Shown here in pieces: positions 36,220 through 60,900 of a stretch of DNA of 64,000 bases. Every line of letters begins with the position of its first letter. The stretch's first letter is position 1. The position numbers and the translations under genes are program-made. The notes beneath the pieces were generated by a model, which made no database searches, was not told where the DNA came from, and saw only the letters and a program-made list of their open reading frames with translations. The DNA comes from a virus (Duplodnaviria > Caudoviricetes). The stretch is taken from the IMG/VR virus record IMGVR_UViG_3300005077_000489, positions 32,001-96,000 of that record; one strand, given 5' to 3'.

Positions 36220-36223
36220 TAAT

Positions 36224-36829
36224 ATGCAGGCTATAAAAGAAATAACGGACGACTTAAAGAAATCGATTTTCGAATATATGCGTTCCGACGGTCCCGGCGG
36301 AATGCGTATCATAAATGCCTTTTTAGATGAATTTAAAGAACTTAGTGACAGATCTCCGCAGGATGATCCGACTAATTTAAAAAATCACATGCCTTTTATT
36401 GTTAAGCATCTAAAAGAAACGTGGGATTCCAGTCTAAATATAGCCGATGATGGAACTATATCTATCGGGGTGTGTAAAGACGAAGTTTTAGGTATAGAGG
36501 AAGATAGAGAAAAACTAAAGCATAATCCTACCCCGATAGTTTGGACAGTTTATTTGATACGTGGTATTGGGGGACGTTACGCTTTTGTAAATCCACAAAC
36601 ATATTTTTTAAAGCATGGTAGTCCTATGCCCCCGCAATACTTTGGTGGATTTCTTATAAACAGAGGAGACTGGGAGAGAGAGGGTTGGAGCGAAGCCGTA
36701 GGATCTTTTGAACAGTATGAGCATCCTGCGTCTGGTGCATCTCCTATACCTTTTTATAAGAATATATTAAGCCGCATAGATTTACGTTCCATAATTGCGG
36801 AGGCTATAGGGGCGGCGGAAAAGAGATGA
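36224..36829 (+). CDS. Probable neck/tail-completion protein
   Basis: Position in the head-tail module only. Confidence 0.4.
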   Translation: MQAIKEITDDLKKSIFEYMRSDGPGGMRIINAFLDEFKELSDRSPQDDPTNLKNHMPFIVKHLKETWDSSLNIADDGTISIGVCKDEVLGIEEDREKLKHNPTPIVWTVYLIRGIGGRYAFVNPQTYFLKHGSPMPPQYFGGFLINRGDWEREGWSEAVGSFEQYEHPASGASPIPFYKNILSRIDLRSIIAEAIGAAEKR

Positions 36830-37623
36830 AATTAACTAGACAAGAAGATATAAGTGTTTATTTATACATAAAGGATATGGTAATAGGACCGCGGTATTAT
36901 GAGTCTACCATAGGAGACTCGTTAACACAAGTAGAAACAAACCTATGGAATATAGATTATGATGAGGAATTGGATATACACCCATTTCAAAGACCCGAAT
37001 ACTCTGGTCTTGGACGTGGCTTGTTATATTTTGATCATTTAGGGGAGACATGTTTGTTTGGTATAGAACAAGTTAGTTCTCTACGAGTGTATCAGGGTGC
37101 CACTGTAGCATCTGGTTATCGTGTTAATTATTTAAAAGGACAAATTGAAACTTCACAGGATTTGAGTAACTATTTGGTAGACTATGAATGGAATTATGTA
37201 GCTGTTATAGATGCGTGGCCTTATGAAGATGTTCCTGCTCTACCTATAATCAGTATAGAAATGCAAAGCGGTGATAAATCACCTCTACAGATAGGTGGCG
37301 GAGATATCAGAAATGCATCCTGGAACCTGGAGATATTTGCTAATAATAAGGGCGAGCGGGATGATCTATTAGATACTATTTATAATGAATTATATTTACG
37401 CAGATGCAGTATATATTCCTTGTCCAAAGGTCTCCCTCTGGATATGAAAGGATTTTATAATTTAGAATTTGATAGTTCTATTAATAATGAATATAAATAT
37501 TTACATTTTGAGAATATAGAGAAACGTCTCACTGGTTTACCACGTTGGGGATTTTATAGTCAGGAACTTATAAACAGATATAGAGCACAAATTACTTTTG
37601 ATACCATTGCCTATAAGTTATAA
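36826..37623 (+). CDS. Probable tail terminator/completion protein
   Basis: LPIISIE...WNLEIFANNKGERDDLLDTI...YRAQITF; precedes the major tail gene. Confidence 0.55.
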   Translation: MKLTRQEDISVYLYIKDMVIGPRYYESTIGDSLTQVETNLWNIDYDEELDIHPFQRPEYSGLGRGLLYFDHLGETCLFGIEQVSSLRVYQGATVASGYRVNYLKGQIETSQDLSNYLVDYEWNYVAVIDAWPYEDVPALPIISIEMQSGDKSPLQIGGGDIRNASWNLEIFANNKGERDDLLDTIYNELYLRRCSIYSLSKGLPLDMKGFYNLEFDSSINNEYKYLHFENIEKRLTGLPRWGFYSQELINRYRAQITFDTIAYKL

Positions 37624-37630
37624 CAATTAT

Positions 37631-37647
37631 TTAACTAACTTTGTTTT
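37631..37647 (+). promoter_or_regulatory. Candidate phage late-promoter motif TTAACTAACTTTGTTTT
   Basis: Matches 17302..17318 (16/17) and the repeat core at 26775. Confidence 0.35.
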
Positions 37648-37795
37648 AAACAGTGAATGAACTTTCTATAAGGAAAGGGATAGGATTTCACCTTGATTAA
37701 TCGATATGGATGTCTATGCCCCCATAGCGTAAAACGTAAGTTTTTTGGCATCCAGTCTATAAATTAGGACCTTTTCGTTAGGAGGAAAAAATAAT

Positions 37796-39526
37796 ATGGC
37801 TAAACGAAATCGTATTCTTTACGCTTCCCAGGCTGTGCATGCTAATGGTCATATCCTTTATCGTGTGCAGACTTTGGGAAGTAATACGACCTTTACCTCT
37901 GAAGACGTATTTGAACTTGGACACCTTGATAGGGTTGATGTTGTTGACGATGTCCCCGCCGTAGCAGTGGCAATCGATACCAACGACTTCGGTGCACCTG
38001 AAACTATGGCAACACTAGCTGGTCTGAACCCGTCACGTATGACTGGTTCCCCTAGTTCTAGTGGGTCTTATTTACGTACAGATATTTCTTGTACCGGTTC
38101 CGGAGTTAGATACTATCATGGTGTGGCTCTCTCTCATTTTAGTGATGCTTATACCAAGATTTGGGCTCCCGTCCAAAACGAGGCTTCTTTGGGCACTCTA
38201 GATGATGACGTTCAAATGACATTATTTATGGATAAGGTTTATGTTAACTCCATGACTCTTACGTATAATGTTGGAGCCACTGCCACAGAGAATTACGCGG
38301 GTGAAACCGATAATAAGATGTGGTTGGTCAACGGCGGGAAATTTGTATCCCAGGAAGAATGGGATATTTTATCACCGTCCAACAGTCAAGAGTTGTATTT
38401 AGGTATACCCAATTCTGCTAGTATCCCAGCATTGAGTAATTGTAAGACTGCTTTCTTATGCTTTACTGATACTGGCGAAGAAGGTATTATGGTTAAAGCT
38501 TCAACAGATAAGTATGGTACTGTATACCCAGTTCGTACTGCCGCCGCAAGTGGTGTATTCGGTTATACCTCGGCTACACAGACCCTAACTTTACCTACTA
38601 ATGCTGCTACATTGTGGCCTTATGCATCCAAGGGGTATAAGATTGTGGCTGTTTATGCTGCTAGTCAGTACGCTGCTTTGAACGGTAATACTGCTGCTTC
38701 TGATCCTGCAAAGGATTCGAAAAGAGTATATGCTAAGTATTTTGAGTTAGTATCCTCAACAGATGCTCCCGATGCCCCTGCAAACTCTCTTCCAGAGGAT
38801 GTTGGTGCTGTAAGGCAGGGTCAAGTTGAAGTATATCTAGTTGACCCAGACTTGCTGTCTGGAAAGACTAATGCCGATTGGTCTATGTTACTTCGTATGC
38901 AGTCCGTTACTATTACTGCTAATCCGACAAGAACGCCATTGAATGAGTTGGGGCATTTACGTCCTTATGCTCGTCCGATGAATTTCCCTGTTGAAATTAC
39001 CACTAATACTACAGCGACTGCTTCCGACCTTGAGTTATGGGCGACATTTGCCGGTTATACCCCCGCTGATTATGACGCTGGTGGGTCCGGAACTGATATC
39101 GCCTTGACTAATCTAATGTCTAAAAATAATCTTATTCTTATAATTAAGATTTTCCAACAGACAGATGATGAGGCCGGTGGAAGTGGTATGGATAGAAAAG
39201 CTATGCTTCCTACCATGGCTGGTAAAGAGTATTATGATTGGGACGGTGCTGGTACATACCCGTCTTATAATCCGGCTAGTGCTGGAATGGTTGGTTCATG
39301 CGTTGAACCACCGAGGGAACGACCCCTTAAGACTGTTATAGTCCCTGGTTTGAAGATTACTGCCGAGAACTTCCAAAACGCAGCCGGAGGCGGCGGAGGC
39401 GGAGGTGCTGGTGCTACTCAGGAATTTAATTTCCGTTCGACCAACGAACTATATGTAGTAAAGGGTGATGTTGATATTCAGGACGTTAATTGTGTAGAGG
39501 TTAATGCTTCTGCAGACTTGTTCTAA
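37796..39526 (+). CDS. Major tail (tube) protein
   Basis: AGGAGG RBS; RVQTLG..TFTSEDVFELG and RMQSVTITAN..R..LNELG tube-like segments; followed by a strong hairpin and tail chaperones. Confidence 0.7.
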   Translation: MAKRNRILYASQAVHANGHILYRVQTLGSNTTFTSEDVFELGHLDRVDVVDDVPAVAVAIDTNDFGAPETMATLAGLNPSRMTGSPSSSGSYLRTDISCTGSGVRYYHGVALSHFSDAYTKIWAPVQNEASLGTLDDDVQMTLFMDKVYVNSMTLTYNVGATATENYAGETDNKMWLVNGGKFVSQEEWDILSPSNSQELYLGIPNSASIPALSNCKTAFLCFTDTGEEGIMVKASTDKYGTVYPVRTAAASGVFGYTSATQTLTLPTNAATLWPYASKGYKIVAVYAASQYAALNGNTAASDPAKDSKRVYAKYFELVSSTDAPDAPANSLPEDVGAVRQGQVEVYLVDPDLLSGKTNADWSMLLRMQSVTITANPTRTPLNELGHLRPYARPMNFPVEITTNTTATASDLELWATFAGYTPADYDAGGSGTDIALTNLMSKNNLILIIKIFQQTDDEAGGSGMDRKAMLPTMAGKEYYDWDGAGTYPSYNPASAGMVGSCVEPPRERPLKTVIVPGLKITAENFQNAAGGGGGGGAGATQEFNFRSTNELYVVKGDVDIQDVNCVEVNASADLF

Positions 39527-39538
39527 GTCTTGACTTAT

Positions 39539-39578
39539 TATACTAGGCTGACTGCACAAAAGTGGTCAGCCTAGTATA
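39539..39578. terminator. Perfect 14-bp inverted repeat after the major tail gene
   Basis: TATACTAGGCTGAC-12 nt-GTCAGCCTAGTATA. Confidence 0.7.
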
Positions 39579-39589
39579 TCTTGTATTAC

Positions 39590-39659
39590 AGTCTGGGGCT
39601 ACAGACTGGCTACGGCAACATAGCAGAAGCCCCCGCCTTTAGGCGTGGGGAGTAGTCAC
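39590..39659 (+). mobile_element. Miniature non-autonomous IS200/IS605-family element, copy 2
   Basis: TTAC then AGTCTGGGGCTACAGACTGGCTACG...GAAGCCCCCGCCTTTAGGCGTGGGGAGTAGTCAC; compensatory stem changes relative to copy 1. Confidence 0.7.
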
Positions 39660-39743
39660 AAGATTGCTGATTACCACGTTCTTTAACGGCGAGTAAGCAA
39701 TCACGGAACGGTAAGTGTTATAGGAAACGAGGGGAGGTTACTC

Positions 39744-40721
39744 ATGCTTTATGAATTAAACAATACAGATTTTTCATCTGTAGACCCAAATCTACCAATT
39801 ATTTTTTTACAAATTACCAAAACAGGCGGATTAGCCTATTCACAAGCACTGCAATTTATATATAGAGAAAGATTCTGGTGGGGAAACCCCGAAGAGTTGG
39901 CAAAGGCTGTTAATAAAGGTCCATGTACTGTTTTTGCTGGGCATTTTAATCTGGCTTACCCCTGTTATCAGAAAATAGAAAAAAGATTTAATCATGTAAC
40001 ATTACTACAACACCCTATTTCTAGGACGTTAGCAAATTATGAGAATATTCTTATAAATCCGAGACACCCTAGTCATAATATTTGTAAAGAGATGTCATTG
40101 AAAGAAATTTTTAAGCAAGACTATTTTAGGAAAACATTTGGGTATGATGACTTGATCGGTATCTTGTCTTCTATGCGTTTTATAGGTAATAGGACCTGTA
40201 ATTTAACGCAGCAATCCAAGTTTAATCTGTCTAATTTTTTTACCTTCTTTGGTATTGCCGATTATTATACTGAGTTCTTAGACATCTCCAACCGTGTCTT
40301 TGGTTGGCCTGAATACGATTATAAGTCCTTCGATACATTATCAGAGATGAATCACGAAGATTATGCTGATTCAGAGACCCTGTCTCTTATGTCTGATGCA
40401 TACAGGCATGATATAAAATTTTATAATTTTGCTGTGGACTTGTACGAGAAAAACAGATACGCCTGGTTGGGTAAGAGTGATTTATTAGCAGAAGATGCAT
40501 TAGAATTACGAGAAATAAATATTTTTGAAGAAAGGCCGTCCCGTATTGAAGTGGGTAGCCTTGCGTCTAATAAAGAGGAAGAGATACCAGAAGGAGAAAT
40601 AATAGGAGTGGTTGACGAAGCTGCGGCGACTACCCCGGTAGATAGTAGTAAAGTTTCGTTATTCAAACGAATTCTTCTGTGGTTTGGCAGGATATTTAAT
40701 AAGAAAGGAGGAGAGGTGTAA
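39744..40721 (+). CDS. Sulfotransferase-fold protein, possibly catalytically altered
   Basis: IIFLQITKTGG (cf. FLHIPKTGG), FAGHF, TLLQHPISR (cf. RDP..R), DIKFYNFA. Confidence 0.7.
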   Translation: MLYELNNTDFSSVDPNLPIIFLQITKTGGLAYSQALQFIYRERFWWGNPEELAKAVNKGPCTVFAGHFNLAYPCYQKIEKRFNHVTLLQHPISRTLANYENILINPRHPSHNICKEMSLKEIFKQDYFRKTFGYDDLIGILSSMRFIGNRTCNLTQQSKFNLSNFFTFFGIADYYTEFLDISNRVFGWPEYDYKSFDTLSEMNHEDYADSETLSLMSDAYRHDIKFYNFAVDLYEKNRYAWLGKSDLLAEDALELREINIFEERPSRIEVGSLASNKEEEIPEGEIIGVVDEAAATTPVDSSKVSLFKRILLWFGRIFNKKGGEV

Positions 40722-40723
40722 TT

Positions 40724-40996
40724 ATGGCACTAGAAGAGAATAAGTATCAAAAAGATAGTAGAAAAAAATTAGAATATGAATTAGAAAAGATCCAAAAACG
40801 TGCTCAAGGTCAAATACTAGACTATGTTGAAGTAGCCCTTGGAGACCCAGAAAAATTTAAGCCTACTCGGGCTAAAATTAATAGATCAATAAATGAGTTC
40901 ACAAGAGCAATCAAAAAAGAGCTAGAAAGATCTTATACTATAGAATATCAGGCTATAAGTGAAGATATAATTGTAGTGGCTAATAAGTCACGCTAA
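40724..40996 (+). CDS. Hypothetical protein
   Basis: GGAG RBS, 90 aa. Confidence 0.6.
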   Translation: MALEENKYQKDSRKKLEYELEKIQKRAQGQILDYVEVALGDPEKFKPTRAKINRSINEFTRAIKKELERSYTIEYQAISEDIIVVANKSR

Positions 40997-41016
40997 GTAA
41001 AGGAGGAGATAGGATT

Positions 41017-41703
41017 ATGGCAGACAAGAAGAATAAAGAAGAGAAAGAACTCATGGATATTTTTGAAGACAAGCGTTCATTCATCCATAATGGTGAAAAG
41101 TATTATATTGACAATGCTGATTTTAACACCATTCGCGGTGCCGACTGGCATTATGCACAGACCTTTAATGAGGCTATGTCACTCGGTATTATGACGGTTG
41201 CCCAGATGCAGAATGTTTTGATAGCCCGCGGAGTGATCGGAAAGGAGTGGGAGGAAAAGCGACAAAAGATACTTACAACTATCGATGAGAAGACTGCGGA
41301 ATTAAATGAAGCTAAAGATAGAGATTCAAAACTACAGTTAGCTACTGAATTGAAAGAGTTAAGAGATGAATTATTCAGGCACAACCAGATTGCTTCCAGT
41401 CCGACATCCCAGGCTGCAGAGAATCTAGCAGACGACGCCCGTGTAGAGTTTCTTACTTCTGCTATGATAAAGGATTCCGACGGTAAGAGTGTATGGCAGT
41501 CTTACGAAGATTTTAAGACTAGCGAAGGCGAGAAAATGGCTCTAGCAATGAGGTCTCGTTATGAGGTGATGCTTTATCTCTCTGGAATGTCCAGTAATTT
41601 CATGGACTTACTACCAGAATCTAAAGCGATGAAGGATTTAGAGGAAGAAGATAGGTTGTTGGAAGACGCACCTAAGGATGAAGGTCCTAAAAAGAAAAAG
41701 TAA
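41017..41703 (+). CDS. Probable tail assembly chaperone
   Basis: Helical acidic protein between tail tube and tape-measure genes. Confidence 0.5.
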   Translation: MADKKNKEEKELMDIFEDKRSFIHNGEKYYIDNADFNTIRGADWHYAQTFNEAMSLGIMTVAQMQNVLIARGVIGKEWEEKRQKILTTIDEKTAELNEAKDRDSKLQLATELKELRDELFRHNQIASSPTSQAAENLADDARVEFLTSAMIKDSDGKSVWQSYEDFKTSEGEKMALAMRSRYEVMLYLSGMSSNFMDLLPESKAMKDLEEEDRLLEDAPKDEGPKKKK

Positions 41704-41723
41704 TTTCTGTATGGTGTCTAATT

Positions 41724-41748
41724 AGGGTAGCCCGGGCGGCTACCCTTT
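41724..41748 (+). terminator. GC-rich hairpin (weak terminator/attenuator)
   Basis: AGGGTAGCC-cgggc-GGCTACCCT followed by only TT. Confidence 0.45.
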
Positions 41749-41768
41749 CCACATAAAAGGAGGGGCAT

Positions 41769-42878
41769 ATGTCTATAGCCTGGTCTATAGAGGAACTACA
41801 ATCGCACATTGATGAAGTTACAACGGGCGAAAAAATTATTCCTATAGAACTGTCAGGTAGGGACACCCCTCATTATATACTAGTAAAATACCCAAATAGA
41901 AAAATTTTAAGATTATCAGAAATTGAATATGATAAGTATATATATACTGCTGCCCGGTTAGGTGTAAGAACTGAAGCAGAGATGGAAAAGCTTATTCGTG
42001 AAAAGGGTATTTGGACCGAGGATGATGATGAAATTGTTGCTGAATTAATGGAGAGACTAAATAAGTGGAAGAATAAGATAGTTAATCCGGATGTGACTGA
42101 GAATACTAAAAAGCTAGGATTGGAGTTGATCGCCAAAACAGAGGAGGATATATATCAAGCAGAAAAGAAGAAAGATGTTGCGATGCAAAATACTGCTGAA
42201 CGGCGTGCACGCTCCGCTAAATATGACTTTCTAGTTTGGGCATCTAGCTACAGACCAGAGACGGATGAAAGACTTTATGATAATTATCTAACCTACTGTG
42301 AAGAGGTAGATAGTGAATTAAGGAATAAACTTTTAGGTGAATTCATAAAATTCTATCTGGTCGGTCATACGACTGAAGAAATTCGTTATATTGCTAGAAG
42401 TAATCTTTGGAGGATACAATACGTTTCGGCACAAAAGGCTAATATGCCTTTATTCCCAAATTCAATAAGGGAGCTGACTCCGTTCCAATTGAATTTGATT
42501 TGGTGGTCATCTTATTATCAGTCTATTTATGAACTGTTGCCCGATGATCAACCTGAAGATTACATTATAGAAGATGATGAATCTCTTGATAAATATATGG
42601 AAGACTTGCATAAGGAACGGTCTAAGGACAGAGCCACAAGGCGGGCGGAAAAGAAATACGGTGCTAATACGGCGATGAAGATGCAAACAGCCTTAGTTAT
42701 GAAATCTAATCCTGATTATTGGGATTATGACTACGATGCTGCTAATCCTATTACTAAAAAAGGTCAGTCCAACATTACTTTAATGGACGACCCTAAAAAT
42801 AAGGCTCAAGCCTTTAAGAAAACAAAAGGCATACAACGTAGTCGAAAATATACCGCCCCTAAAAATGAAGACGAATAG
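41769..42878 (+). CDS. Probable second tail assembly chaperone
   Basis: Immediately upstream of the tape-measure gene; GGAGG RBS; 369 aa. Confidence 0.5.
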   Translation: MSIAWSIEELQSHIDEVTTGEKIIPIELSGRDTPHYILVKYPNRKILRLSEIEYDKYIYTAARLGVRTEAEMEKLIREKGIWTEDDDEIVAELMERLNKWKNKIVNPDVTENTKKLGLELIAKTEEDIYQAEKKKDVAMQNTAERRARSAKYDFLVWASSYRPETDERLYDNYLTYCEEVDSELRNKLLGEFIKFYLVGHTTEEIRYIARSNLWRIQYVSAQKANMPLFPNSIRELTPFQLNLIWWSSYYQSIYELLPDDQPEDYIIEDDESLDKYMEDLHKERSKDRATRRAEKKYGANTAMKMQTALVMKSNPDYWDYDYDAANPITKKGQSNITLMDDPKNKAQAFKKTKGIQRSRKYTAPKNEDE

Positions 42879-45900: not shown

Positions 45901-48900
45901 AAAATAGCGTTGTAAAGTATCTGCAAGAGGTTGGTCATGATATTTTTGGTGCTCCAATTAAATCTAAAGAACTAGCTGATGAAACTTATATAAAGGATAT
46001 AGTTAAGAGATGGGCACAGTCTCCTCAGGGTCCTATAGAAGAAAATATTGTTGAATTAATAAATACCTATTTGGGTCATGAAGCACGTAAGATTTCTACC
46101 GGTCAAGTTCTTAAGGGTGTAGCCTCTACAGCCTTTACTAGATTCGGTACAGAAGTAGAGGAATCGGTCAGGGAAAAAGCTAAAAAAGGATTGTATCCAA
46201 AGATAAAATTTATGGATGTGGGTGAATTATCAGATGTTCCTAAATCATTTGAAGAATTGATATCTGAGTTATTGTTGGTTCGAAAAGATTTAGACCCAGC
46301 AAAAGTTTCTAAGGCTCTAGAGATGATAAAAGGAACTCAAAATATGATTATGATGTCTTCTGACCATTTAAAACAATTAAAAATTAGTCCTATAGAATAT
46401 GGTACTGGTAGAATAATGGGGGAGGATGCTCCGAGCCTAGAGGAGCGTCGTAATTTTGTTGGTAACTTACTTGGTATAAATTTGACCTCAAAAGAAGCTC
46501 TAAGGAGTGCAGGAGATATTACTGCTCAAGTTAAAATGTTAGAGCAAGATATGGAGAGAATAAGAAGGCTATATAAAGAATCTACTGGTGGAGATTTAAA
46601 TAAAGAGGTTCCAGTAGACCTACGGATACTAGCCTCCGGGATAGGGAAGAAGTCACGTATGATCGGGGGTAACTTAGCAGAGATTATCGCAAATAATATT
46701 ATAGGAAACCTACGTTCCAGACCTTTAGAAGGTGAGACGTTAATGGAACAGATACAAAGGTCTCCCCTTGCTAAGGTTCTTGTGGAGAACACCGCCTCTG
46801 GTCGCGAAGTTATGAAATTGGCAGAACTATATAAGGGGGCTTTAGGATTACGTGGGAAGTATGGCGAAGAGTTTATATATAAACAAAATGATGCATTAGA
46901 AAAAGCGGTTGCAGGAATGATGCATGTTATGATTATGAAAGAACCTAAAGGGTGGGTACCTAAAGGTGCGGCCGAATTAGAAGCTGGTTTGTCAAAGATG
47001 ACAATAGATCCGCATGGATGGTTTGGTCTTAAGAAATTGTTTGATCCACAAGGTGCGTTGACACGTGAATTTACCATGCGGGCTTTTCCTGAAGCACGGG
47101 AAGCTGGTGCTTTCTTATCGGCATTTCGTTCATTTGCTAAATTACGTGAAGAAGAGATGACCAGAGCAGTGAAGACGGGAAAAGTTAGAATGGTCGGTGA
47201 AAAGCAATTAGTTGATGAAGACAGAGAAGATTATATTGCTCCTCTTAAAAGAAAGGCGACGGTAGCCGATCTGTCTAGAACTATTTTTGATCCATTTAAA
47301 TACGGACCTTCTATGGCTTTGGAGTTACCGGAGCCATCCGAGGATATGAAACGTTTGATAGAGGAAGAGATTAAAGAAGGAATAAAAAAAGGTATACAAG
47401 TAATGCCGGTCAAACGTTTGGTTGAAATTCCAGAGATTAGTGCACGACAGTATGTGACTTCAGAGACCGGTGAAGTATTACCCTCTACGGTATCCAGGTA
47501 TCTCTCAGAACTGGTGGATGCCACAAGAAAGTATCATATATTAGGTAGCCGAACTAATGATATAAATAAATTAGATATGCAGCGAGAGTTCGTTGGGACC
47601 GCTATTGGAGACTTCTATAATAGGATACATCCTATCAGGGACTTGAGCGTAAAACTTGATTTGCTCAGTAAACTGGAAGAGCAGGTTTTTTCCTTAGTGG
47701 GAAGTAAACCTATGCCACAGTTTTCCGGGAAATCTTCTGTCATCGCTGACGCACAGGACCCGACTAAAGTATGGTTTCCTACTATGTACAGCCGCCTCGA
47801 CGACGAAACAAAGAAATCTTTAGAAGAGGATATGCGTAAAGGTATTTCTATAAAAGATGCTTATAATAAATATTTTAAGGAGTTGGAACAATCAGTTTCT
47901 AATATAAATTTCAGGGCTCGTTTTCTTCGCGACCTTATAACGGGACCTGTAATTTATACTAAAGGAAAAGAGGATATTGGGCGTGAAGTAAAAACAGATA
48001 TATCAGAGGGTAATGATCCCCGCTATCAAAATATTAACCTAGTCCAAGATAAGATGTTATCAGATATTATCACTAACTTCAAACAGTACGAAGCTGAAAC
48101 AGATGCCTACGGGAAAACTATCGGAATAAAGTCTCGTTCTTTATTGGACTTACAGTATAATGAAATAAGACGTAATCTAAAAGAATATTATGATGAATTA
48201 TCTAATATGATATTCGGTAGAGGTATCCTGTCTGATGTAGTTTTGAAGAAGAAGATACCTGCTCTCTACCTGACAGCTCAACAACGACCTTATGACCCTA
48301 GCGAAGCAATAAAATCTGCTATAGACAAGTTAAACAAATTCAAAACAGAGGTTCCCAATGCTGAAGAATTGAAGACGGACTTAGATAAGGCTCTTCGAGA
48401 TGTAGAAACTTTCAAAGTAACAAAACCATCCCAGTGGGTCCGTCCCGGAGAAGTTCGTATAGGCGAGAGAGACCTAAAGGAATTACAAAAAGCGGGAATG
48501 GCTACTCCTGAGTTACAAAAGAGTGTGGATAGTGTTTATGCCTTGATAAATAGGCAGCCTACTACAGATGAATTTAGTTACAAGGCGATGCGGCTTACAG
48601 TGGATGATGCTCTAAAAGACCTGTCTGGAATAGCAGTAGTTCCCGGGTTACCAATAGGCGACTATCCAGTTAGTTCTAAGATGGAAGAGGCTTACAAAGC
48701 GTTAGAGGATTTACGTAGCAAAAAAGTTAAGGCTATAGAAGAAGAACTTTCTAAGTCTAAAGGTAAAATGACTTCTACTGTCACTAAGTTGCAGAGGGAT
48801 ATAGATGAGATAGACCGAGCGTCCAAGGACTTGCGGCCTATGTACCATGAAGCCTCTTTGGGTTTAGATTATGACGGAGATATGATTTCTATTCATGCTG

Positions 48901-51900: not shown

Positions 51901-54900
51901 AGAACATAAGGAGAGCATCTAGAGGTTTCGTTCCTGCTGATTACCCTCATATTAAACCTATTTATGATTTTCCTAAATTCTTAGATACAGAATCTTCGGT
52001 ACAATACAAAAGTCATGGTGACCAAGTAAAAATGAGTGCTGTACCTCTAAGGTGGGGTAATATAGAAATAGGTTATGGTACTAAAAACAAACCATTAGAT
52101 CCAGCTACAGCTAATGCTAGATATAGGCCTTTTATAGAAGCTACCCAGGACCTAGTCCCAGTAATGAAAGATTGGGTAAAAGAGAACAAGCATCGCATAG
52201 ATTTATATGGTGAGTTTGGCGGGTTAAAAGATAAATTAGTATGGTTTGATGCTAAGGTAGCAAACAAAACTTTGAGTCCTGATGATTTTAAAAAGTTAGC
52301 TGAAGAGTTAAATCTGAAAACTACTGAAGAATTATATAGAGGACCAGTAACGAAAGAGATAGTTGACAAAGTATATCGTCAAGTCACTCCCTTCAGAAAA
52401 TTAGAAGAAGGCGTTGTGGCTAAAGGATTGGAGATTGATGAAAGAACAGGCTTCCCTAGAATGGCTAAGTTTAAGACTAAGCCTTATCTAGTGGGGGAAG
52501 AGACGCGTTATCCTTGGCAAGACTGGGGTAGTGCAGAAAGGAAAATAGAGGAGAGGCATAAGAAACTTATGGAGAGAGCATTTTCTCCATTTGATAACAT
52601 TGAAGAAGGGATAGAACAGGACCCTACAAGATCTTTTACACCCACGGAAGCCCAGCGTAGAGAAGGCTTATATCCAGAAAATTGGCCGGTTGTAGAAACT
52701 ACCAAAAAACGTGTTGAAGAGTATCTTAAAGGTTTAGATGATAAATTTTATCAGTCTGCCGAGAGAGCGAAAGAATTTCCTAAAGGTACTAAGTTCTTAG
52801 TACAAGCCCCGGGTGTAGAGCCCATTCCTTCCTATGCTAAGGATGCTGTGGTTATTTCTAAAGAAGAATTAAGGAAAACCATCTTTGGTAAAGGGATGCC
52901 AGACTTACCTTATGACCCTGTTCTTGTATTAAATTCTAGAAGACAGGTTCCTAGGTACCCTGAAGCAATTCCTATTTCTAAGGAACGCGGTTTTATGTTT
53001 CCTGGCGAGGCTAAAGAGGGTGATGTAGGTAGGTTTGTCATACACCAGCATGATGCCTTAAGGGCGGGTCCCCACCATGACATGCGTATTGAGTTAGGTG
53101 GTCAATTACAGTCTTGGGCAGTTCCAGAATTTATTCCGGAAAAGATGGGTGAACGTAGGTTAGCCATAGGTCCTACGGCACACCATGCCATTGACTACTA
53201 TCAGAAGGGAGATTACGATATTCCCAAAGGTTTTTATGGTGCCGGTCATATGTCAACATTTGATACGGGTAAAGCTACTGTAGAAAGTGTAAAAGAAGGT
53301 TATGTTACTGTACGATTAGAGGGAGTAAAAGGACTAGCTGATGGTACTTATTCTATCATAAAATATGAACCTAAAGGAGAAGATACAAGAAAAGGACAGT
53401 GGTTAGTGTCTAAGGTTAGACCATTGTCAGAAAGAGACCCAGAAAGAGCAAAGAAATTATACGGTTTTAGTCCATCCATAGAGTTAGATGACGAATTGGG
53501 GGCAGGAGAGGGTAGGTATGGACAGGGTAATATAAGGTTATTTACCCCTGGTAATAGAGCAGAGATGCGGGCTTTTATGAATGTATTACAACATGAAAAA
53601 GGACACGCAGCAATAGATTTTGCAGCACCTAATATTGCTAGGGATATAATGGCTGGAAAACAATTTCCTGGTGTTGATACCAAGAAACTGCAAAGTTATT
53701 ATATGCAGAAGTATGGGGACCGCGGAGATGATGAGGAGGCAGCAGCGAATGCATTAGAAGAGGCTATTGCAGGCGGGCTACGTACAGACGAAGACCAAGA
53801 AATATTAGACGAAATTAGCAAACTGCAAGATGTCATAGGTGAAAAAGCCGGAATGGCATTTGCAGGTACATCACCACAGAACGAACTTTCCTATATTAGA
53901 AAACTATTCTCACCAGTACAACAACCGTACACAGTTTATACAGATGCAGGCTCTAGAGGTAACCCCGGTCCTGGGGGTGCTGGTGCCGTAGTATTTGACC
54001 CACAAGGTAAGAAGGTTTCAGAACTTAGTAGATACTTAGGAGAAACCACAAGTATGGCTGCAGAATATCAAGGGCTTATTATGGGATTAGAAGAAGCCCT
54101 TAAACATTCTGCCAAAAACATTCAACTTAAGTCTGATTCACAAGTAATGGTGGGGCAGATGAGAGAGGAGTTTAGAGTTAAGAATGAACAAATAAAAGAA
54201 TTAAAAAGACAAGCAGACTTACTTAAAGCACAATTCGAAGGTTTTAATATAGACTATATTCCCAGAGAACAAAATAAATTAGCAGATAAATTGGCTAACA
54301 GGGCTATGGACTCATATCTTAAGTCATATTCGCCTGCCGAAGATGACGTAGACCGTTTTGGTAGTCCTATTATTTATGATTATAATAAATTGACAAGTAG
54401 CCCTAATTGGCTTCCCCGCGGTATGACTGCTAAGGCTGTTTCCGCTGCTGTAAATGGACAATTTATAGGTGCGGCATCTTATTCAACTGCCTCTCCTGAA
54501 TACACAGGGTTTGGGGAATTATCTATAAAACCGGAATATAGGCGTAGTAGTAGAGTTGCTGGTAATTTGATGGAGAAGGTAATAATAGATTTAATCAATA
54601 GTGGTAACTTCAAACATACACGTCCTCTCACCCCAGTCGCTGATACTCCAGAAGCCATCTCTTTTTGGGAGAGTATAATAAAAAGAACACAGAAGCCTTC
54701 AAGAAATATAAAAGAGGCATTCTTAGCAAATAATGTGACTCCTGATGATCTTTCCATGGTTGCTGGTAGATTACAGGCTGAAATAGACATAACCAAGGCA
54801 TCTAAGTTTACTGATGTAATAAAGAGGATCATTGAAGAACCTCATAATTTAGGGGAAGAACTTTCTAAACTGACAGAGACTAATCAAGCAAAAGTAATTA

Positions 54901-57900
54901 GAGCTACCCAGGCAGTGTTGGCTAAAACAAATGATGCCTCTTATCCAAAGATAGGTATTAAACCTACTGCTTTTTCTGAGGGATTGGATTTTAAGTCTAA
55001 ACTCCGCTCTGAAATAACATCATTATATAATTACGGTAAAGAAGGTGCCAAACTATTTTTTGGGTCTTCTGGTTCTGGTTCTTCCATAACTGAATTTACA
55101 AAGAATATAGCAAGGGGTATATGGGATGACCTAGGTAGATTGGGAAAATTCTCATTAGGTACAATGCGCGGTTTGAGGGCGTATGCACCTGTAGAAGATT
55201 TAGTTCGTAGTGGTGAGATAAAGATTGATGACACCCCATTTAGAGCCCGGGGGCTAACGTCCGAGAGAGTCAGAAACTATTTAGGTAGAGGATATGCTGT
55301 TGGTATGGGTGGGGGCGGTAATATATATATGCCTCCTGATATTATACAATCATATCAGAATGCCACTGGCGGACTTAAACAACAGTATGGTCAATCTATA
55401 ATGAAAACTTATTTTCATGAAAAAAGGCATCTTGATATCGATGCTGCTCCAGAGAAAATAAAGGAAAAGTGGAGACAACTTGCATCTGACAAGAATACTG
55501 ATATAGGTAAATTAGTTAGTAGCTTTATAAATGAGGCTATGCTTAGCACTTCCAGGGACGTATATAAGAAACAATTTGAGGATGCTCAAAAGAAATATGG
55601 AGAAAATATAGGTTCCGATTTCTTAAATTCTTTTGCTGCTAGGTGGGAAGCCTTACAAGAGATAATTGCTGGTCATCCGGAGATGCGTTCTGCTAGTAGT
55701 AATCAACAGTTAGTACAAAAAATTCGCAGTGATTTCTATGGAGATGTAAATAAGCCTATACCTGGATTTGGTCCCAGTGCTAGTGCCTTTTCTCCTAATT
55801 TAACAGATTATAAAAATTTCAAGAACATTAAAAAGGGCTACGAAGAAGAGTCGGATACTGGACTATTACATAAGAAAAAGGTAGCTTTAAAATTTGGGAT
55901 TCCGCCATTAAAAGGTCTGTTGGGAGAAGATATCGATATTTCGGAATCTCTACAATATTTAATGCATCCGGCTATGAGGGAAAGAAGACTTATGGGACTC
56001 CCCCAAAGAATGATAGATTCAAGAAATCCTTACTTAGCTGGGATGTTACGTAAAGGTTTTGGTGCTGGTGCTGGCTTATCCCTAGAAGGAGAACTAGGAG
56101 TAGGTCCTTACAAAGTAGAATTAGGTGGTGTAGGCTTTGGCAGATATGGTAAGAAAGATGAGGAATTTTTTGCTGATAAACCCAGTGAGATAATAGGACT
56201 TTCTAGTTTGGAACCCGTCAAACGTCCAATTGATTACGTGGGTTTGAGCCCCGGTGCCGAACACGGTTTGTTGGCCGCCCTTAGGGCAAATACTAACGCT
56301 CTACTACGTTCATCTTTTATTACGAAGGATATGCCCGTTGGGTTACTTCCTACTATTATGCAGGACATAACTAAAGCGTACAGGGTTCCTGCTACTGATG
56401 AGACCCTAGGCAGTGCTTTTAGAAAATTTTTTGGCGGCACTTACGACCTTGCAAAGGGTACTATGAAAGGTGCTATAGGTCTTCCTTATACATTAATAAA
56501 ATCTCCTTTGGATATATTTAAATCCGGTAAGGATACAGATTCCAGGTTTTGGACTGGTGTTGGTCAACAATTCAATGGTATTTCTGCGGGATTATCAGAA
56601 CTTTCTACATACAAGAGTGGTGCTTTCTTGGATACAGATTTAAAAAGTGCCTATTCAACCAAATCAAAATCTATTTATGATATAAAGAATATTGTAGATA
56701 TGGAGTACGATAAATTAGTAAGAAAGTTAGAATTTGGTTTGGCAGTGATGGAACCCGCAGATTTAAAGCGTAATATATCTGATGTATTTACGGCTTATTC
56801 GGACACGATGGATAATATGTTTAAAAACCCGTCTAAAGCCTTAGCCGAGGAGGCTGCTAAACAAAAAGCAATACTGGAATCAGTATTGGGAAACCAATGG
56901 GAGACTCCCCCAGCGACACAGCGATTAATACGTGGTGGTGCAACGCTGGGTCATGGGGTGTCTTCTATTTATAATCGATTACTGAAAACTTTGGAAGAAA
57001 TAGGTTATGCTACGGGTGGTGTCGGAAAGGGAGTAGGCTATTTAGCAACACACCCTAAAGACATATTACCCGGAATTATGTCTTCTATCCGAGGACTATT
57101 ACCAGGGAAGGATATTACTGGTGTCGGGTTGTTGGGTGAAACTTCCAGACAATTAGAGCAAATCTATGGTACCGGGATGTTAAGAACTTCTGATGTAGTA
57201 AAGTTAGCCGGGTACGGTGTATCACCAGAACAAAAAGTTGGGGGGTTACTCTCGCGTGCTTCAAAATATCAACCTGTGACAGCCGCGGACCGTGCTATGA
57301 GAGAAGTTCTTGGTCTCAGGGAAACCGGTGCAATTGTGGGAGATATCACTAATACAAAAGGAATCTTGGGTGCTCTAGGGCATGTTGTGGTCAAACCCAT
57401 ATCTGCTATTGGTGAAACTATGACAGATATGGGTAAGGCGTTTGGTTCCTTTAATTTAGTAGAGATGGTAAAAGCTCCTCTAATCGGTCTCTTAAAGCTA
57501 GCCCCAGTGATCGGTCATACCGTTGCGGGTGTTCAAGAATTTAGGGAAGAAGTAGAGAAGGGTGCTTCCCCTTACACATCATTTGTTAGCGAAGTCGGAG
57601 AACAAATCATAGAGGGAATTACTATTGCATTAGGTGCCGCCGCAGGTACTAGAGTTGGTCGTCCTGCAGCCGCCGGGTTAGCTAGTATAGGTGGTAGGGG
57701 TCCTATGGCAGCCGCTAAATATTTACCAATTGCCACTGGTATAATAGGTAGTATTCTAGGAGGAATTGGTGGTGGTAGAATAGGGGAGTCTTTTGAAAAA
57801 GGTATGTTCTCTATGGTGGGACAGACCTCTCCTAAGTCTGTAGCACGTTCTATTTGGGAGCAAGAACGTGATAAGCGATCTCTAGAGGAAGAGGGTCTAG

Positions 57901-60900
57901 ATAAAATACTACCGGATTACCTGGATGAATCCAAAAAAGAAGAATTAGCCAATATGCAAAAATGGTTGGTCCGTGGTGGCGTAGTTGGCGGACTATATGG
58001 TGGTATGAAGGTTCCTCTTCAAGGTGGAACACTTTCACGTTTAGTCTCTATGGTCGCGGGTCCTACTCTAGGTTATCTCGGTGCCAAAAAATTAGGAGAT
58101 GTCACGATGGGTCGTGCTTCAGAGAAGGCTAGAGAAGACTATATGGAAAAGACTCTTGGATTTCGATCTTTTTCTCCATTATCTTCACAAGAGAAATGGG
58201 ATATTCCTAGGGAAATACGCGGGGTTACGTCTGAGAAACTCAAAGGAAAAACCTTAGATGAAATAATTTCTACTTTCAAAGAGTTACAATCTGAAACGTT
58301 TAGTGGTAGCAACTTAGATAAGCAGAAACTGTTGACATCACAGAAGGCTGTTACCCAGTTTATGTCCGAGATCTATCTTAGCAGAATTGAAGAGTTGAGA
58401 GATCAACTGAATGTCGCTGCTAAAAGTGGTAATCAGAATTTAATGGCAAAACTCCGAGCAGAGATTGATAGGTATATAGTTTTTTATATAGGGAATGTAC
58501 TCAAGTCTTCTACTGGTGCACACGCAGCCGCCGATGCTTTTAGGGTGCGGTCTATCGGTGGTTTTGTAGGTTCAGAGGACTATGAAGCACGTTCTACAGG
58601 TCGTCCCCAATCTTTCGATGAGGTTATAAGTCTCGATAAATTCTTGGAGAGGGGTCTTAGCGGTGTATCTAGGAAGGCTGTAAATCTATTAAGGAATTTA
58701 TCTGATACGGGTGCTTCTCCAAGGTCTATATATCAAGAAATAATGCCAGGAATTCTGAAGTCTTCTACGAATATCCCAAGAGACGTTACGGCTGTGCATA
58801 CATATTTGAAATCTGTAGTTCATGAACTAGGACAAACCCCAGATGTTAATATAGACCAGTACCGTTATTGGAAGTCATTGGAAGAATATTTCCGGGCCAC
58901 CGCAAAGCAATACAGAGGAAGTAGTCGGTTCGACTTTGGAGATCTACGTTCTGCTGCTCCGATAACACCAGTTGGTTTACGACCGGAGGACCAGGAGACC
59001 TTTAATGCAAAAACTGTAGATTACTATAAAAAAATGTTGCAGGCCAACCCAATGTTTAAGGAGGGTGCTACTGTACCACTAGAACTTAAAGTTACGGATG
59101 AGGCTGGTAATGCTTTAAAAAATATAAGAGTTGACTTAACAAAAACAAAACACGCGGCGGACGGCGTTTCCATGTCCATAACAGATATGAATAAAGTTAT
59201 GGCACAGAAAAACACTCTGTTTGGTGCAGTAGAACTAACTTCTAGATTTATTTTGGCGGGAGCAACTGTGGGTGGGTTAGTTAATGAACTAAGGACTATG
59301 GCTTCCACTATTGCTCAAGTAGAGTCTGGTATGATGGAACTAAGAAAGGTTATGGAACCCTCTATAACCAACTTTGACGAGATACGTAACTCTGCTCTTA
59401 ATATGGCTAAAGAAATGGGTGTTGGTATTAATGATGTCATACAATCTATGGTAGTTTTCGGGCAACAGGGTGATACACAAGCACAAGTAATAGAGAAAGC
59501 GAGAACATCTGTTATGGCTGCCGCTATAACTGATATGAAAGCTGCAGAAGTCACTGAATATCTTACATCTGCGGTAAAGCAATATGGAGAAGAGATAAAG
59601 GAAACACAACGTTTTCTGGATTCTTGGATAAAGGTTGACGTACAGCATGCCATAACGGCTACTGAATTATCCAAAGCAATGCTGCGTGTTGGTTCCGCTG
59701 CTAAAGAAGCTGGAGTCGGTTTCCATGAATTAAATGGTATTGTGACTGGTATTGGCTCTGTTACTAGACAAACCGGTAGAGAAGTTGGTACTGCTCTACG
59801 TTTTATTTTTAGGAATCTCCAAACTACTCAAGTTAAAAACTATTTGCGTAATATACTAAATATTGATACGTTGTTACCGAGCGGTTCTATAAAACCGGCT
59901 ATGAAGATATTTGATGAATTACAGGCAAAATGGCAGAATTTCTCTGATGCTCAAAGGATGCATGTTGCACAATTGGTTTCCGGTGCTAGACATTATAATG
60001 CTTTTCTAGCAATGATGAATAACTACTCAGAAGTATTAACTGCTACACAAGATTCTATACACTCTGAAGGTTATGCTCAAGCTCGTTTGAATATGCAAAT
60101 GGATACGCTAACTAAGAAACTAGCACAAGTCAGAGCGGCTTCAGAAAGATTATATGTTGACTTTGGTAAACTAGCCCTGGGTCCAATGAAACTCGTAGCG
60201 GATGCCACAACTTCTATGATTACTGCTTTTACTCTAATCCCTGATACTGTAAAACAAGCTATATTAGCATTAGGTACTTTTGCCGCTTTTTCCGGTAAAA
60301 TAGAAAGTGTTATTTCCGGTTTGCAAAATTTTGGGGTGGCTAGCGGTATGTCAGATACCTTTTCTAATTTTATGTCTTTTGCTACCTCCCCAATTTCTTC
60401 AGTAATGAAAGCGTTCTCTTCTGTTCAGGGGGTCTCTGGGTTATCAGAGGTAACAACTACATTAGGAAAGATGGCATTCATTGGTATCTCTGCTGGTAGA
60501 TCTTTTAATAGTTTGTTCAGCAGTATAGGCAAAGGCGCAGGAATTGCCCTTGGTTCTGTGTCACTACTCGCTGCTGCAGTTGGAGCTCTGAGTGATTCAC
60601 ACACAGGAATGTTTAAATTGGCTGGTGCTTTCGGGCTTATAGGAGCTTCTGCTCTTATTAGCAGCGGTATTATAGGGTCCCTAAGCGGCTCCACTACAGG
60701 TTTTATTGGTTCCTTAGCACCTCTGGCTGTAATTGCTACTGTTATCTATAAAAACTGGGATAAGTTATCAGACGTTTTTGGCGGAGTAGGAAATAGTATA
60801 GAACGTTTACAGAAACAGACTGAAGGTATAGGGAGTATCACTAGCAAGCGTTTAGAAATTAGTGAAATAACTACAATATTTGGTAAGGCGAACTTATTAG

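Follow-up and report, generated by a model that had tools for sequence, protein, structure and literature searches.

An RNase H domain in a phage tape-measure megaprotein: an RNA:DNA-hybrid-cutting enzyme probably injected along with the phage DNA

The tape-measure protein gp96 of the Thermus phage P23-45, which carries a virion RNA polymerase at its N-terminal end, provides a precedent for the delivery of an enzyme by this class of protein (Chaban et al. 2024, PMC10770324). The fused polymerase is present in virions and transcribes the pre-early genes. Enzymes are also predicted to accompany the DNA into the host, and to act immediately, as parts of the polyvalent proteins, a hallmark of which is the presence of zincin-like peptidases interspersed among the cargo domains (Iyer, Burroughs, Anand, de Souza and Aravind 2017, PMC5512222). 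In phage Goslar, the RNase HI protein Rhc supports transcription by the phage polymerase, and probably resolves R-loops at places where translation is not coupled to it (PMC13648698). We found no paper on an RNase H of virions or tape measures, in keeping with the remark of an earlier note on the DNA analysed here that a virion-delivered RNase H would be unusual.

The window analysed is a stretch of 64,000 nt, positions 32,001-96,000 of IMG/VR record IMGVR_UViG_3300005077_000489, a 211-kb metagenomic contig from an uncultured phage that is 86% complete; the features given window coordinates below are all on its + strand, and coordinates are those of the window unless the genome is specified. 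A giant open reading frame starts with a GTG codon at 42903 and continues with zero stops to position 64000, giving the first 7,032 of its 13,616 codons; on the genome it spans 74903-115753, ending 19.8 kb beyond the window. Its product is identified as a tape measure by a TP901/PhageMin_Tail core at aa 5496-5690 (59388-59972; PF10145, 7.3e-26), with matches to the tape-measure family phrog_4211 (4e-61) and to 14 more tape-measure PHROGs. Some 3,500 residues before this core is the sequence LDYDGDM (aa 1988-1994, 48864-48884), a motif of the beta-prime type that binds metal in a fused two-barrel RNA polymerase. The motif LD[FY]DGD is present in 43 of the 44 closest giant tape-measure proteins, and one relative, P0003, gives a faint PF00623 match at the homologous place. 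A major head protein gene (phrog_2522, 2.4e-9) is located 13.6 kb upstream of the giant frame; seven of the eight ORFs scanned between the two have no PHROG match and the other matches only unnamed families and 'kinase'. The earlier description of the host protein as a giant polypeptide with a fused polymerase and a phosphoesterase is thus supported by the PF10145 core, the beta-prime-like LDYDGDM and a LigD-type phosphoesterase domain (Pfam).

The RNase HI domain occupies aa 3675-3803 of this protein (53925-54311), with a well-modelled core at aa 3670-3809 (53910-54329), and the earlier note was right to place it in the giant frame, since 53925-54315 translates without a stop. Its identity is a match far beyond chance. 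RVT_3 (PF13456) scores 5e-25 (88.2 bits against a cut-off of 21.6) over profile positions 3-123 of 123, and RNase_H (PF00075) scores 1.5e-12 (48.4 bits, cut-off 25.8) over the full profile length. A phmmer search of PDB sequences gives full-length matches to the N-terminal RNase HI domain of Rv2228c (3HST, 1.5e-26, ~40% identity) and to LC11-RNase H1 (4e-24). An AF2 model built from a 72-sequence alignment has a pLDDT of 91, and in Foldseek it superimposes on 3hst with TM 0.92 and an rmsd of 1.1 Å, on the Halobacterium RNase H1 with TM 0.95 and on the hybrid-bound LC11 RNase H1 (4h8k) with TM 0.88; the best 50 of its 439 PDB matches at E<=0.001 are all RNases H. The four catalytic acids are D3681 (53943-45), E3721 (54063-65), D3745 (54135-37) and D3795 (54285-87); none of their columns varies across the 72 aligned sequences, and each of the four phage copies retains the complete set. 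By alignment and model the domain is a type-1 RNase H of the archaeal and actinobacterial RVT_3 subtype, having neither a hybrid-binding domain nor a basic protrusion, and it is apparently catalytically competent. The 211-kb record contains no second RNase H.

The claim that the RNase HI signature is full and intact stands for the tetrad, which is complete, but not for the family motifs TNN and DG, which read TSM and DA. The T-S-M sequence (aa 3716-3718, 54048-54056) is at the start of helix A; the further clade-specific changes are A3682 (53946-48), which turns DG into DA, and V3748 (54144-46), which replaces Leu. These are among the least variable positions of the family: in 281 homologues with an intact DEDD tetrad, the Gly of DG is present in every one and the second Asn of TNN in 278, and the three positions concerned (3682, 3718 and 3748), 99-100% conserved in the 281, differ from the family residue in each of the four phage copies. 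DG and TNN align with G11, N44 and N45 of the E. coli enzyme, residues that we take to be substrate contacts, and the second Asn of TNN adjoins the DNA-strand phosphate pocket. Since neither motif is catalytic, membership of the family stands, but a deviant subgroup is marked. The changes suggest retuned substrate binding, and canonical hybrid binding may be weakened or altered.

Could the domain instead be a weak or inactive relic, with a place in the ruler only as a spacer that binds nucleic acid or serves structure? Elsewhere, the second Asn is typically missing from copies without the DEDD tetrad (21 of the 33 that lost it), and a short metagenomic relative, L003, has frameshifts in the domain, but all four acids and 30 of the 35 positions tabulated at >=85% family conservation are unchanged in the window copy, most of them in all four lineages, despite divergence to 39-70% identity, and L003 is frameshifted in the next module too, as expected of poor sequence, making a relic very improbable.

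The RNase H does not stand alone. It is contained in an insert of ~1,900 residues that separates the ruler part of the protein from the fused RNA polymerase, in the order RNA ligase, linker domain, LigD 3'-phosphoesterase, zincin-like module, RNase H and zincin-like module. The RNA-ligase-type nucleotidyltransferase domain (aa 3033-3176, 51999-52430; PF09414, 6e-7) is conserved in the relatives L005 and P0003, and the LigD-type 3'-phosphoesterase domain (aa 3381-3485, 53043-53357; PF13298, 2.6e-16) is 84% identical in a third, L001. In all relatives that have it, the RNase H is accompanied by the ligase, the phosphoesterase and both zincin-like modules, in the same domain order. Duplexes that contain ribonucleotide tracts or 3'-ribo ends are substrates for all three kinds of enzyme, RNase H1, the LigD phosphoesterase and Rnl2-type ligases. 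The distance from polymerase motif to ruler is 3,444 aa in the window protein compared with a median of 1,522 aa in 43 cassette-less relatives. The RNase H is followed by a 278-aa insert specific to the window (aa 3812-4089, 54336-55169), which is absent from L001, P0003 and L005 and has no Pfam match at E<=5; its GNAT look-alikes in the Atlas reach only 0.77-0.81. Joint acquisition of the RNase H and a 'GNAT' from an RNase H-GNAT fusion was considered and rejected: the similarity to P0158 ends with the RNase H, and the 278 aa that follow have neither a Pfam match at that threshold nor a counterpart in the three relatives.

The two modules that bracket the RNase H each carry an HExxH motif, and these are the sole two in the 13,616 aa. 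Module 1 (aa 3525-3660, 53475-53882) has HEKGH at 53592-53606 and a downstream ALEEAIAG, and both motifs are invariant in four orthologues; module 2 (aa 4120-4300, 55260-55802) has HEKRH at 55416-55430 and a downstream WEALQEIIAGHPE. The AF2 model of module 1 has a pLDDT of 85, and its best neighbours by VIA-align are all zincins, though weak ones (Z 4.2-4.9: PprI 4.9, ArdC 4.8, anthrax LF 4.4, and SPRTN). Compared with each other by hhalign (probability 69.5%, E 4e-5), the two modules are probably paralogues. Among the Atlas look-alikes of module 1 are LPD23/LPD1 at a score of 0.94, LPD23 occurring in 18% of one look-alike cluster and the LPD1 cluster scoring 0.89, a likeness that is of the language-model kind only. 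No LPD or MPTase model of Pfam scores on the window protein and the modules have no Pfam match; a PDB profile search returned only two chance-level HEAT-repeat rows (E 0.4-0.5), and Foldseek nothing below E 0.4. The assignment of the modules to the zincins is weak.

The distribution of the cassette is narrow. It was found in only four or five relatives, the protein searches reaching lengths of up to 12,000 aa, and 43 other giant tape-measure proteins have the polymerase motif and no RNase H cassette. The RNase H domain, with its DEDD tetrad intact, occurs in the window, in L001 (a 545-kb contig, 70% identity to the window copy), in P0003 (58%) and in L005 (a 256-kb contig, 39%). Between the window and L001 the non-synonymous divergence of the RNase H is 0.185, close to the values of 0.23 for the polymerase core and 0.26 for the ligase; synonymous sites are saturated (pS ~0.8), so that only the pN values are comparable and no numerical dN/dS is given. 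Comparison of the aligned copies shows the domain to be under purifying selection. A metagenome scan added only the 2.8-kb contig L003, with its frameshifts in the RNase H and the next module; it was taken to be either badly sequenced or decaying and left out of the conservation analysis. Searches elsewhere added no relative: tblastn of aa 3000-3960 found the cassette in no GenBank phage, its sole match, in the 9.6-kb record of a faecal phage, being to a small and unrelated RNase H, and a profile search of genome contigs with the zincin and RNase H alignment gave zero relatives.

As to origin, the window, L001 and P0003 copies group together with SH-aLRT 98. L005 stood apart in a quick free tree, but a second acquisition is not claimed, since a tree constrained to hold all four copies together has the better likelihood and is not rejected (p-AU 0.91); the four copies are compatible with one origin. 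The earlier note had looked to phylogeny to find the donor lineage, but the best cellular relatives, which are standalone RVT_3 enzymes, RNase H-GNAT fusions of ~300 aa and actinobacterial RNase H/acid phosphatases, are only 45-50% identical and point to no donor.

What would an RNase H do in such a protein? On the evidence taken together, the phage probably injects an RNA:DNA-hybrid-cutting enzyme along with its DNA. The best explanation, which we put forward tentatively and at somewhat short of even chances, is that the megaprotein is a 'polyvalent' tape measure and the RNase H one of its cargo domains, ejected with the DNA to clear RNA:DNA hybrids. Here we infer virion incorporation, ejection, proteolytic release and the substrate. 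The megaprotein would be synthesised late and incorporated in the tail, and at the next infection would exit the tail just before the DNA. The two zincin-like modules could then free the RNase H by cutting, or else keep it anchored at the entry pore. Its targets would chiefly be R-loops and RNA tracts from the co-injected polymerase, which would transcribe at a stage when ribosomes are not yet coupled to it and the phage has made no protein. The neighbouring phosphoesterase and ligase might trim and then seal the resulting RNA-tipped 3' ends.

Clearance of R-loops behind the fused polymerase was among the roles suggested by the earlier note, and it survives only in part, as a candidate role in this lineage: such polymerases do not in general require an RNase H, because the 43 related giant tape measures with the polymerase motif, and gp96 of P23-45, have none. 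A second suggestion, that the domain removes ribonucleotides together with the phosphoesterase, falls away for single embedded ribonucleotides, since their removal is the job of type-2 enzymes and a type-1 RNase H requires about four consecutive ribonucleotides (PMC4132731). It also counts against the proposed clearing of hybrids that the host would normally have an RNase HI of its own to do this. R-loop priming of replication was considered as the main role and is weakened by a DnaG-type primase gene (genome 184440-184661); a DNA polymerase of family A or B was not found, but nothing follows from that in a record that is 86% complete.

A different target, also named in the earlier note, is offered by host immunity. 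An injected RNase H could destroy, before phage gene expression, the hybrids that host defences need, whether retron msDNA, the template:cDNA hybrids of defence reverse transcriptases or the RNA guide-DNA duplexes of Argonaute and CRISPR systems, and the altered contact residues would then be an adaptation to them. The cassette is variable and lineage-restricted, as arms-race cargo should be; the changes to TNN and DG are clade-specific; and the tape measures of sister lineages carry other conflict-type domains (ART-PolyVal PF18760, cpYpsA SLOG and an RNase_T exonuclease). We nevertheless consider such a role unlikely. Hybrids within Cascade, Cas9 and Argonaute are largely shielded by protein, the cutting of retron msDNA is expected to trigger the retron toxins rather than disarm them, and there is no sequence link to known anti-defence proteins. 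Polyvalent proteins, for their part, are predicted to counter restriction and CRISPR upon entry (PMC5512222). The more specific proposal that the retuned domain, with its DEDD tetrad, is the first injected anti-defence RNase H, cutting the hybrids of immunity or else hybrids or dsRNA that are poorly handled by ordinary RNase HI, within seconds and ahead of phage gene expression, is more unlikely again.

The RNase H might also serve the producing cell, with the abundant, late megaprotein, or a fragment released from it, removing primers or R-loops from replicating or packaging DNA and the tape-measure location being incidental. The phage makes RNA primers, judging from its own DnaG-type primase, and has this as its sole recorded RNase H; the flanking zincin-like modules could release the domain before assembly, as has been proposed for DdrB of P1 (PMC5512222). 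Replication enzymes, however, are normally encoded by early or middle genes and not as domains of late structural proteins, the tape measures of 43 related phages manage without the cassette, and delivery accounts better for a fusion to an ejected protein that is found at the same position in four lineages. We regard a producing-cell role as improbable.

The cassette could, finally, be an injected kit for RNA (tRNA) repair, in which the ligase and phosphoesterase mend RNAs of host or phage cut by anticodon nucleases and the RNase H is an accessory that acts, possibly, on dsRNA. Members of the Sulfolobus tokodaii/LC11/Rv2228c subtype are reported to cleave dsRNA too. P0003 has two PolyA_pol/CCA-adding-type head domains (PF01743, 1e-15 and 3e-11) inside the same cassette, directly before the ligase, but Pfam finds these domains in none of the window, L001 and L005, and detects no polynucleotide kinase or known tRNA-repair partner. 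RNase H is not known to take part in heal-and-seal repair of the T4 Pnkp/Rnl1 kind. The changed DNA-strand contact residues would fit a relaxed need for DNA (PMC4132731), yet on balance repair is a decidedly improbable purpose for the cassette.

The domain itself is an ordinary RNase HI, and the interest lies in its location and its travelling partners. If it is delivered and active, RNA:DNA-hybrid cleavage would be a new enzymatic activity among phage-injected functions, and the single published tape-measure-borne enzyme, the P23-45 polymerase, would be extended to a whole cassette of nucleic-acid enzymes. The 43 cassette-less and four or five cassette-bearing relatives form a natural experiment on an injected RNase H, ligase and phosphoesterase, which can address the problem that genome entry poses, be it R-loops, RNA-tipped breaks or host immunity. 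With near-invariant contact residues consistently replaced in an otherwise intact active site, the domain offers a testable handle on substrate recognition by RNase H1.

Compared with known systems, the domain is closest to Rv2228c/RnhC (3HST), LC11-RNase H1 (3U3G, 4H8K) and the enzymes of Halobacterium (4E19) and Sulfolobus tokodaii (2EHG), with which it shares fold, subtype and DEDD tetrad. The model matches these RVT_3-type enzymes with TM 0.92-0.95, and they and the phage domain alike lack the basic protrusion and the hybrid-binding domain. Those cellular enzymes, however, are free-standing or fused to PF00300, whereas the phage domain is at residue ~3,700 of a tail protein, has no PF00300 partner and has DA, TSM and V in place of DG, TNN and L. 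PF00300 (His-phosphatase, CobC-like) gives no match in aa 1-7032, and the nearby LigD-type phosphoesterase lies upstream.

The second likeness is to P23-45 gp96, also a giant tape measure with a two-barrel RNA polymerase and its DxDGD motif (PMC10770324), the two proteins being likened by architecture and motif. In the description of gp96 (5,002 aa), the only domains are polymerase, metallopeptidase and membrane domains, and RNase H, ligase and phosphoesterase are absent (PMC10770324). In Rhc (RNase H-clamp) of the Chimalliviridae jumbo phages, an RNase HI-type domain is needed beside phage RNA polymerases (PMC13648698, a 2026 preprint). Rhc, however, is a soluble nuclear protein of 508 aa, a sliding-clamp-like fusion and a DNA-polymerase subunit, which the paper does not call virion-borne or ejected (PMC13648698).

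The polyvalent proteins (PMC5512222) complete the comparison. The survey text mentions neither RNase H nor a tape measure, and its carriers are head-packaged (MuF- or portal-linked) or conjugative, whereas the window protein is a tail ruler. Both have unrelated enzymatic domains on one polypeptide, the giant frame combining the polymerase motif, RNA ligase, LigD phosphoesterase and RNase H in one chain, and the two HExxH modules beside the RNase H are candidates for the interspersed zincin-like peptidases.

The giant tape-measure protein holds, by both sequence and model, a folded RNase HI domain with a complete active site. As the earlier note had proposed, window positions 53925-54315 (residues 3675-3804) are in frame and stop-free and encode an RNase HI. 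The Pfam profile RVT_3 matches here over its whole length (5e-25, 88 bits against a cut-off of 21.6), and RNase_H matches at the same place (1.5e-12). The top PDB sequence match is 3HST, the N-terminal RNase HI domain of M. tuberculosis Rv2228c (1.5e-26), followed by LC11-RNase H1, Halobacterium RNase H1 and Sulfolobus tokodaii RNase HI, with E. coli RNase HI far weaker. For residues 3650-3830, AlphaFold2 with a 72-sequence alignment gave a model of mean pLDDT 91 and a confident core at ~3670-3809; this model superposes on 3HST with an rmsd of 1.1 Å (TM 0.92) and on 4E19 with TM 0.95. All four catalytic acids, D3681, E3721, D3745 and D3795 (DEDD), are present as claimed, in columns invariant across all 72 sequences. 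Together, the profile and PDB matches, the model and the invariant tetrad confirm the domain and make a chance match impossible. In itself the domain is unexceptional, belonging to a very large family; a library search gave 15,202 matches at E<=0.001, the best at 50% identity.

The carrier gene begins with a GTG at window position 42903, runs open past the window end (window 42903-64000 and onward; genome 74903-115753) and totals 13,616 codons in the whole record, which is linear, 211,229 bp long, 38% G+C and 86% complete (CheckV), the window being its bases 32001-96000. Fifteen PHROGs tape-measure families match the protein, the best at 4e-61. In its first 7,032 residues Pfam places, besides the RNase H, an RNA-ligase-type domain (aa 3033-3176, 6e-7), a LigD 3'-phosphoesterase (aa 3381-3485, 2.6e-16) and the PhageMin_Tail tape-measure core (aa 5496-5690, 7e-26); a Pfam scan of the C-terminal 6,584 residues gave no domain of note. 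A beta-prime-type motif, LDYDGDM, lies at aa 1988-1994. A major-head-protein gene lies upstream of the giant gene, and the ORFs in between mostly lack a PHROG match; the seven consecutive ORFs directly upstream (window 35054-42878, 186-576 aa), none with a match at E<=0.001, are presumably tail genes. Tape measures usually span ~0.15 nm per residue, and phage P23-45 uses a 5,002-residue protein for a ~0.8 µm tail; at that rate 13,616 residues would give a tail of up to ~2 µm, if the entire chain counts. Beyond the window, a 374-aa ORF encodes a DnaG-type primase zinc ribbon (genome 184440-184661); the 211-kb record, at 86% completeness, gave no detectable DNA polymerase of family A or B.

A homologous RNase H, likewise within a homologous giant protein, occurs in four further sequences: a 545-kb IMG/VR contig (L001, L002, L004 and L009; 70% identity in the RNase H domain), the 6,667-aa fragment P0003 (58%), a 256-kb IMG/VR contig (L005 and L010; 39%) and a 2.8-kb metagenome contig, L003, with a phosphoesterase-zincin-RNase H-zincin stretch at L003:1283-2405. 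L003 is frameshifted in its RNase H as well as in its second zincin module and is either poor sequence or a decaying copy. The entire tetrad is kept in the three good copies (L001, P0003 and L005), and the relatives share one module order: polymerase, ligase, linker, phosphoesterase, HExxH, RNase H, HExxH, ruler core. The RNase H is inherited along with the ligase, the 3'-phosphoesterase and both HExxH modules, in a tape measure bearing a polymerase motif. P0003 adds to the same cassette two PolyA_pol/CCA-adding-type nucleotidyltransferase head domains (aa 3080-3210 and ~3343-3482) and two HExxH modules (3718 and 4758); each extra enzyme seems to be accompanied by its own HExxH module. The window alone has a 278-aa insert directly after the RNase H (54336-55169, aa 3812-4089), which the relatives lack; its language-model look-alikes among GNAT proteins are weak (0.77-0.81), and Pfam gives no GNAT support at E<=5.

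Between the window and L001, non-synonymous divergence is 0.185 for the RNase H, 0.23 for the polymerase core, 0.26 for the ligase and 0.155 for the first HExxH module, with synonymous sites saturated throughout. Since the RNase H resembles its neighbours in this respect, it is under similar constraint, that of purifying selection. In a tree of the phage copies and 93 of the closest homologous domains, the window, L001 and P0003 form a clade (SH-aLRT 98), and a tree constrained to group all four phage copies outscored the unconstrained one in likelihood (p-AU 0.91), which is compatible with one acquisition. The L005 RNase H (L005:15497-15916) is only 39% identical to that of the window, compared with 63% for ligase and phosphoesterase and 48% for the zincin module; it is either faster-evolving or replaced in place, and the AU test did not reject its common origin.

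The earlier description of the domain as intact holds for the tetrad and fails for three near-invariant positions, changed in all four phage copies. In a set of 281 DEDD-keeping homologous domains, every one has the Gly that follows the first Asp, a position that is Ala in all the phage copies; the second Asn of TNN, before the catalytic Glu, is present in 278 and is M/M/V/S in the phages; and the Leu after the second Asp, present in 277, is V/V/V/S. The first Asn of TNN is also replaced in three of the four. Elsewhere it is typically in copies without the tetrad that the second Asn is missing (21 of 33 such copies). By alignment, the Gly and the two Asn correspond to E. coli G11, N44 and N45, located where helix A begins, next to the pocket that holds a phosphate of the DNA strand. 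The requirement that the uncut strand be DNA is believed to come from the side chains of this pocket (PMC4132731). The changes are stable across lineages 39-70% identical, which suggests retuned substrate binding rather than decay.

Only two HExxH motifs occur in the 13,616 residues, one on each side of the RNase H (aa 3564 and 4172). The orthologues keep both, in each case with an (A/W)EAxxE(A/I)IAG helix downstream, and the two modules are related to each other by profile-profile comparison (probability 69.5%, E 4e-5). The model of the first (pLDDT 85) has three strands and then the HExxH helix. Foldseek gave nothing significant with this model; in exhaustive structural comparison zincin peptidases rank first, every Z being below 5 (PprI 4.9, ArdC 4.8, anthrax lethal factor 4.4, SPRTN 4.2, PPEP-3 3.9), and its language-model look-alikes include LPD23 and LPD1 clusters. 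The modules are probably peptidases.

With the tape-measure core as query, 71 giant proteins (3,900-8,000 aa) came up, their contigs reaching 325 kb. None has an RNase H annotation, and phmmer with each module of the window protein matched only their ruler core. The motif LD[FY]DGD...H is present in 43 of the 44 closest, at a median of 1,522 aa before the core (range 1,065-1,712), compared with 3,444 aa in the window, an excess of ~1,920 aa. L006, a somewhat closer relative, has motif and core, and ligase, phosphoesterase and RNase H are all absent from its first 5,827 aa. Polymerase-bearing giant tape measures are thus a large family, in which the ligase/phosphoesterase/RNase H block is an add-on insert found only in the window's small sub-clade. 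P0272-P0315 (P0287, for example, on a 325-kb contig) represent this family of tape measures of 4,300-8,000 aa, in which 43 of the 44 closest have the polymerase motif ~1,500 aa before a TP901 core, and uncultured jumbo phages seem to have such fusions far more often than one published example would suggest. Other giants carry an N-terminal RNase_T-type (DEDDh) exonuclease (P0275, aa 198-314), a circularly permuted YpsA (cpYpsA) SLOG domain (P0274, aa 1145-1297) or an ART-PolyVal ADP-ribosyltransferase domain (P0332); cargo appears to be swapped between lineages.

What might an RNase H do in a tape measure? By analogy with P23-45 and tape measures in general, the protein would sit in the tail and exit ahead of the DNA. 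Its enzymatic part would have to pass in an unfolded or extended state, since a 15-kDa domain, once folded, hardly fits a tube lumen shared with other chains. On the likeliest reading, the substrates would be chiefly R-loops or RNA tracts made by the co-injected polymerase, and the RNase H would act together with the phosphoesterase and ligase, both of them known to act likewise on duplexes with 3'-ribonucleotide ends; removal of single embedded ribonucleotides by a type-1 enzyme is unlikely. What speaks against it is that P23-45 and 43 relatives get by with no RNase H. Counter-defence cargo, also raised in the earlier note, is a minority possibility; action in the producing cell is less probable, and a role as accessory to an RNA-repair kit marginally less so again. 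A relic is very improbable beside the kept tetrad.

That a virion-delivered RNase H would be unusual is borne out, as we found no published account of an RNase H in a tape measure or virion and, among GenBank phages, no ligase/phosphoesterase/RNase H cassette. A recent precedent for a phage RNase HI that aids transcription by a phage polymerase is Rhc of Goslar (PMC13648698). Polyvalent proteins have zincin-like peptidases set among their cargo domains, which these peptidases are presumed to process (PMC5512222), a description that the putative peptidase modules flanking the window RNase H would fit; that text mentions neither RNase H nor tape measures. The published precedent for such a motif is P23-45 gp96, a 5,002-aa Thermus phage tape measure whose N-terminal part serves as virion RNA polymerase and bears DFDGD; its authors add metallopeptidase and membrane domains only (PMC10770324). 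Both gp96 and the window protein are tape measures with DxDGD towards the N-terminus, whereas gp96 has no RNase H. The location of an RNase H in a tape measure is new; it extends two known ideas, the tape-measure-fused virion polymerase and the polyvalent injected protein, and the comparison of cassette-bearing with cassette-less relatives is informative.
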